The notes beneath the pieces are model-generated. The model saw only the letters and a list, made by a program, of their open reading frames with translations. It searched no databases and was not told the origin of the DNA. A DNA stretch of 64,000 bases. Source: a virus. Taxonomy: Duplodnaviria > Heunggongvirae > Uroviricota > Caudoviricetes. The stretch lies in IMG/VR virus record IMGVR_UViG_2778260994_000001, one strand, 5' to 3'. The position numbers and the translations under genes were made by a program. Position 1 is the stretch's first letter. The number at the start of each line of letters is the position of its first letter. Shown here piece by piece: positions 45,852 to 48,410 of this stretch.

Positions 45852-46553
45852 TTATTCTGATTCTCGCTCAAAAAACGAGCTAATGAGGGGAAGCCAATCC
45901 TCTGACACTTCGCGAGGCCGCGGTTTGCCGTGGAAAAAGATTATTCGGCAGTCCTTTGGTAATGCCCCATTCCCCCTGGAGTAACGCGCGCTCGCATATT
46001 TTGAACCAGGTTCCACAACATCGGCCTTGTAACTTACAAACCATCCTGGATACAGATCCTGAAATGCTGGTGTATCATCGCCCATAACCTTCCGTAAGAA
46101 CCCCTGATCACCCCAGCACTCAGTAGTGACACAACGAGCAATCCAACCTTCCGGATCTTGCCAGAATGAACTCCAGATATGTGCTTTTACACTATTTGGT
46201 ATCCACAGGGCACCGCTACCACGATATTGTGGATGGTAAAAATCCCTAAGCATGGTGAAGCAGGTTGGTGGATTCTCAAGGATTGGGCGTATATCACCGG
46301 CAATAACCGTGTCCAAATCCAGATAGAACAGATCATCGGTTATATCCGGTCGGAACAACTCGATTTTCGCCCACCAGCCACGGCACTTTTGCCACTGGTT
46401 GATCAATGGGACAACTTTGACGCCAGGTACATGTAAACGCTTCAGGTCTGTCAGGCAAATAATTTCATAGCCTTTTGGCAGTTGATTAACCAGCCACTGC
46501 ACATCGGAAGCGTTATAGTCACCACCAGAGCGAAGAACTAAAGCAATCTTCAT
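45852..46553 (-). CDS. Hypothetical protein with DxD motif (possible glycosyltransferase-like)
   Basis: FYLDLDTV motif; no stronger assignment possible by eye. Confidence 0.4.
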
Positions 46554-47242
46554 GCTGCACCATCACCTTTCACTTTCATCAATGTCAGGTTTCCGCAAAA
46601 TACGGCACCAGTGTCGATATACTGCTGATTCCAGAATGTCTTCGGGCTTTTCACCGGAGTGTGACCAAAGATAAAACGATCTGCGCCCGAAATTTCGCCA
46701 CCAATATCATCCATCGAATCACTGATACGCTCGCGCGCCCAGACAACGTTGAAAAGCGGCACCTCCTTACCGAATTGGTATTCATTATCCGGATAGTCGG
46801 CATGGGCTATAACGATAGTTTCTTGCCCGGTGTTCAACTCAATGATATAGGGCAGACGCTTTACCAGCTCCACCAGCGCCCTGGCTAATATTTCCTGATC
46901 AGTGTCCAGCATGAAGAACCATTGTCCGCCATTCATTAGCCAGTTATTCACGTTGCCATCAGGACTTAACGCATCAATCATCAGCCGCTCATGGTTCCCC
47001 ATCACTGCCCTGAACCAGGGCATCTGCAATAGTTCCAGACATTCGACATTTTCAGTACCGCGATCGATAAGGTCGCCGACCGATATCAGTAAATCCTGCG
47101 CCGGGTCAAAATCCACACGATGGAGTTCGGACATCAGTCTGGTGTAGCAACCATGCAGATCACCAACAACCCAGATATTCCTGTATTTGGTACCGTCGAT
47201 ACGGTGATAAATTGTTGGTGCCATCATGTATTCTTCAGCCAT
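46550..47242 (-). CDS. ppp: Ser/Thr protein phosphatase (lambda PPase-like)
   Basis: Metallophosphatase motifs GDLHGCY, GDLIDRG, GNHE. Confidence 0.8.
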
Positions 47243-47850
47243 TCTTTAAGAGTCATCTGCGGAATACCTCCCATTTTCCCGCATGAAACAACGTCAATCC
47301 GTTCACGCGCAGACTGGAATAACAAAGGCAGGTGACTTAGATTTTTTGGCGTGCCGCCGGAGTGAACGCGTGGTTCTTGTGTAGCGTCAACGCCCACCAG
47401 GGCGACATGTTTGAATCCGATATGGAAAGCCAGGTTCAGAGCACCATATGCACTATTGCCGCTGGCAATTTCATTCTCATCTTCGCAAAGTCCGAAATGT
47501 GCGGACCAGCGCCACGCCCACCACTCGGGAGAATTCGTATTTTTTGGCTCCATGCCACGTTCAGCCACACGACGGAAGCACAGAACGCCGTCTCTGACTT
47601 CACGTTCTTTAACATCGGGTAGTGCCATGCAATAACAAACACCACGGCGACGGCGGCCACGACCAACGCGCCGCATATTGTCTGGCGATGGATCAAGTGT
47701 GAAAAAATAAGAAGCGCGGTTCAGCCAGTCGATGGCCCCATTGACCGCTATAATCGGCACTCCGCGCGGCGCAACAAAGTTTTCGGCGCTTGGGCCACTG
47801 CCGACGATAATAACGCGATCACTGCCTCTAAATTTATTCTTGGGAAACAT
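47224..47850 (-). CDS. DUF115 / Maf-like protein
   Basis: N-terminal VIIVGSGPS...IIAVNGA; tandem paralog of the upstream gene. Confidence 0.45.
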
Positions 47851-48410
47851 TGAATTGCACTGCTCCTACTTGCATTCAAAATATGTAAATCTGCGTGTTT
47901 TTTGCGGGTATCCAGGAACTGCTGTTGCCATTTTGAAATAGACACCTGCGTTGGATTCCGTAGGGCTTGAGGGTGCGCGCCATGCCAATGAAGGCCGTTT
48001 TGCAGAGAACAGTCATAGCCGACTAATACCACTACTTCAGCCCCTGATTCAGCAGCCAGACTGATAGCCTGCGCGCCGCTATTTACCCCTTCCGCCGGTC
48101 CACAATATCGCCTGTACTCCAACGAAAATGATTTCGCCGCCGCCAGGTTGGCTGTCACTTTGCGGAATCTCCCTCCCGGTATGGTGGATCCGTATTGCTT
48201 CCACCATGACAAATCACCGGCGTATAAGGCATAAATGTCATCGAACATCTGCCAGGAATTGTTAACCGCGATGATTGAACAGCCAGTTTTTTCTATAGCA
48301 GCACAGTCCTCACGAGTGAGTGACGGACCGCTACCGACACAAAAAACAGTCCTAGTCGCCCTGCGTGGTATGTTCATTCTCAGCTGCAAATTCAGCCTCC
48401 AGGCGAGCAT
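47748..48410 (-). CDS. DUF115 / Maf-like protein, paralog
   Basis: VFCVGSGPS...IIAVNNS; C-terminal LVGYDC parallels LVGVDA in the neighbour. Confidence 0.45.
   Translation of the reverse strand: MLAWRLNLQLRMNIPRRATRTVFCVGSGPSLTREDCAAIEKTGCSIIAVNNSWQMFDDIYALYAGDLSWWKQYGSTIPGGRFRKVTANLAAAKSFSLEYRRYCGPAEGVNSGAQAISLAAESGAEVVVLVGYDCSLQNGLHWHGAHPQALRNPTQVSISKWQQQFLDTRKKHADLHILNASRSSAIQCFPRINLEAVIALLSSAVAQAPKTLLRRAECRL

Follow-up and report, generated by a model that had tools for sequence, protein, structure and literature searches.

Three genes of P1-like phages, pmgO, pmgP and pmgQ, are considered here against the described systems that they most resemble. The Maf flagellin glycosyltransferases, such as that of Magnetospirillum (5mu5), are proteins of about 600 amino acids (aa) with three domains, and their genes lie beside flagellin genes and genes for the synthesis of pseudaminic or legionaminic acid activated with cytidine monophosphate (CMP). 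Other systems in the comparison are the sialyltransferases Cst-I and Cst-II of Campylobacter jejuni (glycosyltransferase family 42, GT42); WaaZ (GT73) of Escherichia coli K-12 and Salmonella, a 283-aa enzyme of the waa lipopolysaccharide (LPS) cluster that transfers the third 3-deoxy-D-manno-octulosonic acid (Kdo) from CMP-Kdo; the GT8 enzymes glycogenin, Gat1 and WaaO/WaaJ; and MptE and the thiamine pyrophosphokinases. Virion glycans have been demonstrated in mycobacteriophages, whose non-essential glycosyltransferase genes sit in the structural operon, and the soluble heptosyltransferases Aah and TibC glycosylate autotransporter adhesins before export, using the LPS precursor adenosine diphosphate (ADP)-heptose. 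Virion glycosylation in mycobacteriophages is cited in passages of PMC11256854. We analyzed a 64,000-nucleotide (nt) stretch of viral DNA (IMG/VR record IMGVR_UViG_2778260994_000001, hereafter the window), which belongs to a P1/P7-like phage, and conclude that its pmgO, pmgP and pmgQ genes very probably make up a glycosylation cassette.

P1 is a workhorse of bacterial genetics, and a block of its 'putative morphogenetic' genes has stood without an assigned function since the genome was published. Window DNA at 45500-48600 is 98.3% identical to P1 (NC_005856, 79.4-82.5 kb) and 97.8% identical to P7, which by sequence identifies the feature as the P1 operon pmgN-pmgO-pmgP-ppp-pmgQ. The original prediction, made from the sequence of the window, had noted two nearby genes, which correspond to pap and dbn. 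PmgQ, Ppp, PmgP, PmgO, PmgN and Pap each differ from their P1 counterparts by 2-5 residues (PmgN by 2). The six open reading frames (ORFs) named in that prediction are all present at their coordinates and all lie on the minus strand, and every motif quoted from them was found in the translations of PmgP, PmgO, PmgQ, Ppp, Pap and Dbn. As sequences the genes are not new. RefSeq, via PHROGs, labels pmgO 'alpha-2,3-sialyltransferase' and pmgQ 'glycosyltransferase', and dbn already carried the remark 'possible glycosyltransferase' in the original P1 annotation; what is new is the definition of the cassette and the likely correction of the sugar. Literature searches on pmgO/pmgP/pmgQ, 'norphogenetic protein' and MptE-like proteins in phages found no functional study, and the present analysis turns a vague annotation into a precise and cheaply testable hypothesis.

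PmgO and PmgP are predicted to share the fold of Maf and other CMP-sugar transferases

pmgO (hdmB in P7; 47748..48410, minus strand) encodes a single-domain protein of 220 aa, and pmgP (hdmC in P7; 47224..47850, minus strand) encodes a protein of 208 aa. By pairwise BLASTP, the two match over the N-terminal 36 residues only, which hold the GSGPS...IAVN segment (VGSGPSLTREDCAAIEKTGCSIIAVNNS in PmgO; E 0.004), and since this match is restricted to the N-terminus, profiles were needed to show their paralogy. Family alignments of 34 homologues each could be aligned with hhalign over 163 columns, with a probability of 98.1% and an E value of 8.7e-14. On these profiles, PmgO and PmgP are to be regarded as genuine but ancient paralogs.

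AlphaFold models of the two proteins (predicted local distance difference test scores of 86.5 and 94.4) returned an identical ranking of folds. The Maf glycosyltransferase 5mu5 came first (Z 13.9 and 13.6 for the two models), followed by the archaeal pterin pyrophosphokinase MptE 8sd5 (11.3 and 12.6), the GT42 sialyltransferase Cst-I 2p56 (10.9 and 10.7), SteA 9hmy (10.8 and 9.5), and thiamine pyrophosphokinases (7-10 and 7-9). Maf was the top structural match of both paralogs, and it also aligned over the greatest length (168 and 160 residues). As modeled, both proteins appear to adopt the Rossmann-like fold of the Maf central domain and of MptE. The original prediction had called the pair adjacent DUF115/Maf-like paralogs; the profile match and the shared Maf/MptE fold bear this out, the two models giving one fold list headed by Maf rather than unrelated folds.

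Judging from the models, this fold is common to CMP-sugar transferases and pyrophosphokinases, and the chemistry is not settled by the fold alone. It is compatible with an alternative in which PmgO and PmgP are pyrophosphokinases of the MptE or thiamine pyrophosphokinase type, which would use adenosine triphosphate (ATP) to activate a small molecule that PmgQ then transfers or modifies. We consider this very unlikely, since the best and longest structural alignment of both proteins is with a glycosyltransferase and since their constant partners are a GT8-like transferase, more glycosyltransferases, and sugar-type methyltransferases of the TylF and FkbM types. In addition, the metabolic association of MptE and the thiamine pyrophosphokinases is not seen, with no pterin, folate or thiamine genes near any cassette locus examined. 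We therefore infer glycosyltransferase rather than pyrophosphokinase chemistry for PmgO and PmgP.

Both families keep a G-x-G-P-S loop, an invariant Asn in (I/V)AVN, an invariant Asp, an (N)SG turn, the end of a G-x-D strand, and a downstream invariant His. This His is H141/H143 in PmgO and H173 in PmgP, and it is only a candidate equivalent of the catalytic H188 of CstII. In the PmgO-family profile, the G-x-G-P-S and SG...G-x-D segments line up with GNGPS and TSG...GID of CstII. PmgP and WaaZ are alike by eye in the motifs SGP(S/T)S, AVNG, (L/F)T.D and G(L/V)D.T, and E. coli WaaZ itself matches the Pfam MptE-like family with an E value of 7e-7. This family (PF01973, formerly DUF115) scores the window paralogs at 23.7 and 21.6 bits, below its gathering score of 34.6, while the homologues P0051 (44.6 bits) and P0338 (44.1 bits) lie above it; at E<=1 it matches 33/34 PmgO-family members, the best at 3e-8. 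P0051 also has a faint precomputed match to WaaZ_KDO_III.

Compared to Maf, PmgO and PmgP are single domains of about 200 aa with 15-19% identity and a GT8-like partner, so that the three-domain Maf architecture is absent, and neither the window region nor any related locus holds genes for flagella or for nonulosonate synthesis. We propose that they would represent minimal forms of the catalytic domain found in Maf, the GT42 sialyltransferases and WaaZ, and that they would use a CMP-activated donor to transfer a (non)ulosonic, acidic sugar.

PmgQ resembles GT8 glycosyltransferases

pmgQ (hdmD in P7; 45852..46553, minus strand) encodes a 233-aa protein that was originally described as a DxD-motif, glycosyltransferase-like protein, and profile matches to GT8 structures uphold that description. 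A profile built from 43 relatives matched Gat1 (6mw5, E 4e-8), a bacterial GT8 protein (5gvv, 9e-5) and glycogenin (8e-4) among PDB sequences. The motifs of PmgQ are YLDLDTVI with DLD79-81, GDQ148-150, and FHGKPRP with H208. Within the family, D79/D81, D149/Q150 and H208/G209/P211 are invariant or nearly so, and the DxD, DQG and H..KP motifs aligned with those of the GT8 structures, so that PmgQ combines profile similarity to GT8 with the DxD, DQG and H-x-x-G-x-x-KPW-type motifs of that family. With family members of about 200-230 aa, PmgQ is shorter than typical GT8 enzymes. It belongs to PHROG 1962 ('glycosyltransferase') and is best described as a divergent GT8-like glycosyltransferase, presumably of the GT-A fold. 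In our model, PmgQ would be a retaining transferase of the DxD/manganese type that adds a hexose from a uridine diphosphate (UDP)-sugar.

pmgO, pmgP and pmgQ travel together

We mapped family hidden Markov models to 25 loci, non-P1 or distant, in prophages, phages and chromosomes. PmgQ lay within 4.5 kb of PmgP in all loci with enough flank (22/22), mostly adjacent to it, and can be called its obligate partner; PmgO was present in about 17. The association extends to gene fusions. PmgP-PmgQ (P0300 and P0368) and PmgQ-PmgP (P0391) fusions occur in metagenomes, PmgO is fused to PmgP in P0051 (locus L005 8001-9131), and S-adenosylmethionine-dependent methyltransferases are fused in the orders PmgQ-PmgP-methyltransferase (P0350, 616 aa) and methyltransferase-PmgP (P0386). 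Within the cassette, pmgP is the core gene with the strongest conservation. Its family is of modest size (567 clusters at 50% identity in a set of 1.84 billion proteins); a scan of IMG/VR with the PmgP alignment yielded 80 near-identical P1-like contigs and no diversity.

Together, synteny and fusions indicate that pmgO-pmgP-pmgQ is a functional unit, a mobile cassette of soluble enzymes to which dbn is probably accessory and to which neither ppp nor pap belongs. The cassette is shared across P1, Pseudomonas, Ochrobactrum, Xanthomonas and marine phages, and for these three genes the earlier suggestion of a common glycosylation pathway is supported. None of the six proteins PmgO, PmgP, PmgQ, Ppp, Pap and Dbn matched a PADLOC defense model, and no NCBIfam model matched PmgO, PmgP, PmgQ, Pap or Dbn. 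Additional genes vary from locus to locus and include an accessory GT-A-like protein of about 192 aa in five loci, a GT2-like protein, and methyltransferases of the TylF, FkbM or class-I type. Since the accessory glycosyltransferases and methyltransferases are variable, it is likely that the cassette would build a short, variable and sometimes methylated glycan.

CMP-Kdo as the most economical sugar donor

Sugar-nucleotide synthesis genes were found in none of the cassettes examined, nor in P1, and the identified hosts of the cassette are all diderm (Proteobacteria, Bacteroidota and Gemmatimonadota). These two observations make CMP-Kdo, the donor of WaaZ, the most economical donor for PmgO and PmgP. 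CMP-Kdo is universal in diderm hosts and is the sole CMP-sugar of E. coli K-12, and it is the one CMP-sugar available in all cassette hosts. Since hosts such as E. coli K-12 and Pseudomonas do not synthesize CMP-sialic acid, the 'sialyltransferase' label in RefSeq is very probably wrong about the sugar.

Genomic settings of the cassette and its likely acceptor

In many prophages, the cassette is found inside head or late operons. HK97-type prophages in Pseudomonas, Ochrobactrum and Zhongshania carry it directly after the major capsid gene or the head connector and ahead of the head-tail adaptor genes, with its genes tightly spaced or overlapping. In Brevundimonas and Microbulbifer it is inside the structural module; in lambdoid prophages it belongs to the late operon, where it either follows the Q antiterminator or separates the lysis genes from terminase; and in a phage with a P22/SU10 portal it is behind the lysis genes. 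The jumbo phage XacN1 and one Bacteroidota element carry it beside ribonucleotide reductase. In XacN1 (Xanthomonas; L011 6630-11220), the cassette precedes ORF372, a protein of 1088 aa with a weak PKD-like match and a Pro/Thr/Ser-rich stretch, which we regard as a candidate glycosylation substrate from its sequence. ORF373, the gene just before ORF372, joins a TylF-type O-methyltransferase and a PmgQ-like domain in one protein.

This arrangement is similar to that of the mycobacteriophages in that glycosyltransferase genes directly follow the capsid gene in the Pseudomonas, Ochrobactrum and Zhongshania prophages and are non-essential in P1. On the other hand, the enzyme families differ, the hosts of mycobacteriophages are of the Gram-positive type, the glycans are here predicted from genes, and the P1 operon lies outside the head cluster. 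Phage D3 (L113 5691-6409) has, straight after its capsid gene, orf7, an N-terminally truncated PmgO relative without the GxGPS loop, and it has no pmgP or pmgQ. In its head-tail cluster (7748-9143), orf13 is annotated as a methyltransferase and orf12 (275 aa) is by eye a candidate GT9 heptosyltransferase-like protein, so phages of the D3 type may carry other virion-modifying enzymes.

Copies of the genes also occur on bacterial chromosomes. Five genomes of the Pseudescherichia type, without phage genes in the vicinity, have pmgO, pmgP and pmgQ homologues interspersed with genes for an inverse-autotransporter invasin (L110 4992-8492) and for three other Big_1 proteins (whole locus L110 1241-14359, on the same contig as L097). 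Serratia plymuthica (L004 8001-10442 and 15207-15785) has two extra pmgO copies, one of which flanks two Big_1 genes; the locus also carries a holin, a lysozyme, a lipase and a lipoxygenase. In Buttiauxella, a pmgQ-pmgP pair is found near a chaperone-usher operon. The Big_1-linked copies may represent a domesticated locus for adhesin glycosylation or secretion, in parallel to Aah/TibC, from which they differ in that the enzyme family and the sugar are unrelated.

Since the cassette lies in head and late operons, since Maf offers an analogy, and since chromosomal copies adjoin adhesins, we favor as acceptor a protein made in lytic growth, most likely a virion protein. As a whole, the statement that the cassette glycosylates a protein of lytic growth, with a virion protein as the leading candidate, is one that we make tentatively. 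Of the three targets that the original prediction had offered, context speaks most for virion or other proteins, the host surface is a live rival, and DNA comes last in likelihood. Should a virion protein be the acceptor, particles of phages with Gram-negative hosts can be glycosylated, and this would matter for how therapeutic phages are recognized by the immune system and how stable they are, and also for resistance-spreading phage-plasmids of the P1-like type.

The host surface enters as the LPS. Here, PmgO and PmgP would add Kdo to the inner core in the manner of WaaZ, and PmgQ (like WaaO/WaaJ) and Dbn (like WaaG/WaaB) would add hexoses. The LPS core is the receptor of P1, and its alteration could, for example, prevent progeny from adsorbing to debris or exclude other phages. 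This proposal draws on the match of WaaZ to the same Pfam family and of P0051 to WaaZ_KDO_III, on the identified hosts, all of them diderm, and on the E. coli waa cluster, which contains a WaaZ/GT8/GT4 toolkit (families as established in CAZy). It also agrees with the text of the P1 proteome paper, where the cassette proteins are not among the virion components. WaaZ differs from the phage proteins in its larger size and in belonging to an LPS cluster; the phage genes are in late or structural regions. However, the tight, often overlapping placement in head and late operons of many prophages would mean expression only shortly before lysis, when little LPS could be replaced. Moreover, repression of the P1 operon in lysogens, as annotated, speaks against lysogenic conversion; copies on chromosomes adjoin adhesin genes and not LPS genes; the similarity to WaaZ is weak; and P1 deletion mutants plate normally. 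We judge modification of the LPS, the main rival, to be rather unlikely. If the acceptor is nevertheless LPS, the cassette would modify the receptor during lytic growth, a type of function that would be new.

Several observations weigh against glycosylation of a virion protein by CMP-sugar and GT8-like transferases. At the level of the enzymes, true pyrophosphokinases score only slightly below Maf in Z. Searches of PmgO and PmgP against PDB sequences, both single-sequence and profile, found nothing significant; the PmgO profile reached CstII at E 0.2-0.7 over two short motif segments only, which falls short of significant similarity to GT42 even at the best value of 0.2, and the PmgP profile gave no GT42 match. 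Against E. coli WaaZ, hhalign returned E values of 0.002 and 0.0012 with probabilities of only 14% and 19%. Pfam Glyco_transf_8 matched 0/43 PmgQ-family members, none of which matches any Pfam family at E<=0.01, and for this reason we speak of a GT8-like and not a canonical GT8 protein. At the level of the acceptor, the P1 operon is annotated as controlled by a C1-repressor operator and a sigma-70 promoter, with no late promoter; the text of the P1 virion proteome paper mentions no glycan on any P1 virion protein; and the capsids encoded beside the cassette do not differ at the C-terminus from homologues of cassette-free phages. A search of the window ORFs for relatives of the Big_1 and PKD-like proteins and for Ser/Thr/Pro-rich stretches found none, and we know of no precedent for Kdo on protein. 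An extra Ser/Thr-rich C-terminal tail of the cassette-linked capsids was looked for and ruled out, since homologues from phages lacking the cassette end alike.

In published work on P1, CRISPR interference (CRISPRi) knock-downs and deletions of pmgO, pmgP, ppp, pmgQ, pap and dbn plated normally, and antirestriction was unchanged in the deletion mutants. The genes, and with them any glycosylation that the cassette would carry out, are dispensable for plaque formation in the laboratory. Protein glycosylation in its most far-reaching form would make the cassette the first virion/adhesin protein O-glycosylation system of Gram-negative phages, in which minimal Maf-like enzymes hijack CMP-Kdo to attach an acidic ulosonic sugar plus a hexose and which some enterobacteria have domesticated for their Big_1 adhesins; taken in full, this reading is a doubtful one.

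Dbn is a probable accessory glycosyltransferase

dbn (54344..55318, minus strand) lies 6 kb away from the operon, downstream of the helicase gene ban, and encodes a 324-aa protein that is weakly GT4/GT-B-like. It matches Pfam Glycos_transf_1 with an E value of 3e-5 and 24.0 bits (cut-off 26.4), has the E-x7-E motif ESLGLTVLE, and matched no PDB sequence. Synteny links this distant gene, which the original prediction had already noted as GT4-like, to the cassette. In coliphage IME392, a Dbn homologue of 50% identity separates pmgP from pmgQ, and Buttiauxella has a Dbn-like gene 3 kb from pmgQ-pmgP. From these arrangements, Dbn is probably an accessory glycosyltransferase of the same pathway. 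The dbn ORF of the window starts at the internal MNILIIG, while the annotated P1 Dbn of 332 aa has eight more N-terminal residues; since PHROG 2518 aligns from profile position 9, the shorter start is suggested to be the real one.

Ppp and Pap appear to be bystanders

ppp (46550..47242, minus strand) encodes a 230-aa Ser/Thr phosphatase of the lambda-PPase/PrpA-like type, with the GDLHG, GDLIDRG and GNHE motifs of the PPP family and a Pfam Metallophos match at E 4.6e-16 (60.2 bits against a cut-off of 21.5); it scores 274 bits against NCBIfam PRK11439, whose equivalog cut-off is 326. pap (43708..44214, minus strand) encodes a 168-aa HAD phosphatase of PHROG 415, with a DIDGT motif and a HAD domain of the polynucleotide-kinase phosphatase type. 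Both had been counted among the members of the proposed pathway. An extended version of that proposal would have pmgO, pmgP, pmgQ, ppp, pap and dbn act in one pathway, in which the phosphatases process the sugar or acceptor and DNA is a possible target. The translational coupling of ppp between pmgP and pmgQ (overlaps of 19 and 4 nt) speaks for it, as do the retention of ppp in this position in a 72%-identical Pantoea P1-like element, the likeness of Pap to the phosphatase domain of polynucleotide kinase, and the two phages in which the cassette is beside ribonucleotide reductase genes.

However, ppp occurs within the cassette solely in P1-like elements and is absent from all non-P1 cassettes examined. 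The P1 relative D6 (L116 3490-4182) has a 90%-identical ppp and no pmgO, pmgP or pmgQ; there, the gene stands among lambdoid nin/ea-type small genes beside an HNH endonuclease, and ppp thus behaves as an independently mobile gene. Likewise, pap is found alongside the cassette only in P1-like elements among the loci examined, and a strong terminator-like hairpin (44239-44268, minus strand; 11 pairs followed by a T-run) separates it from pmgS. Since neither phosphatase accompanies the cassette outside P1-like elements and since ppp stands alone in D6, we regard both as bystanders, and their proposed membership in the pathway was not borne out. From its distribution, Ppp would be a co-transcribed but lineage-specific passenger and not a component of the cassette. 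Furthermore, no gene for base hydroxymethylation or other DNA hypermodification is next to the cassette in any locus, antirestriction is unchanged in the P1 deletion mutants, and to our knowledge P1 DNA is cut and cloned normally, with methylation as its only known modification. A single pathway of all six genes, with DNA as a possible target, is hardly credible in this light. A further C1-operator-like site is present at 43692-43708, just beyond the end of pap; together with the hairpin between pmgS and pap, it suggests that pap is expressed separately from pmgR-pmgS.

Layout and control of the operon

The five ORFs of the operon overlap by 59 nt (pmgN/pmgO), 103 nt (pmgO/pmgP), 19 nt (pmgP/ppp) and 4 nt (ppp/pmgQ). 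Since PmgO homologues mostly begin near residue 12-20 of the annotated ORF, the true start of pmgO is probably the ATG at 48377. The first ORF, pmgN (hdmA in P7; 48352..48507, minus strand), encodes 51 aa, belongs to PHROG 2350 with the function label "unknown", and had no matches in the non-P1 cassette loci. Published results on pmgN conflict, as CRISPRi knock-down scored it as essential (efficiency of plating 1.4e-2) while its deletion was reported to be non-essential (PMC10695390). Because knocking down the genes downstream of it (pmgO, pmgP, ppp and pmgQ) was without effect, simple polarity does not explain the result for pmgN.

The control region (48551..48606, minus strand) was mapped from the P1 annotation and comprises the counterpart of the C1 operator Oppp and the predicted sigma-70 promoter PpmgN. 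The Oppp counterpart (48551-48567) carries two substitutions compared to P1 (TATGTACTAATTAATTT here and CATGCACTAATTAATTT in P1) and its mismatches to the C1 consensus thereby rise from 4 to 5; C1 repression of the operon may therefore be weaker in the window phage. A consensus scan allowing <=3 mismatches misses P1 Oppp, which is too degenerate, and gives no independent support for the operator. Promoter-like and terminator-like sites inside the operon were not above those in shuffled sequence.

The surrounding region is a mosaic of P1 and P7. Window 42819-45900 matches P1 (97.5%), while 41675-42363 matches P7 (98%) and covers P7 upf87.6, a 'putative tyrosine phosphatase'. A pmgT-like ORF at 42788-43513 encodes 241 aa here compared to 309 aa in P1.

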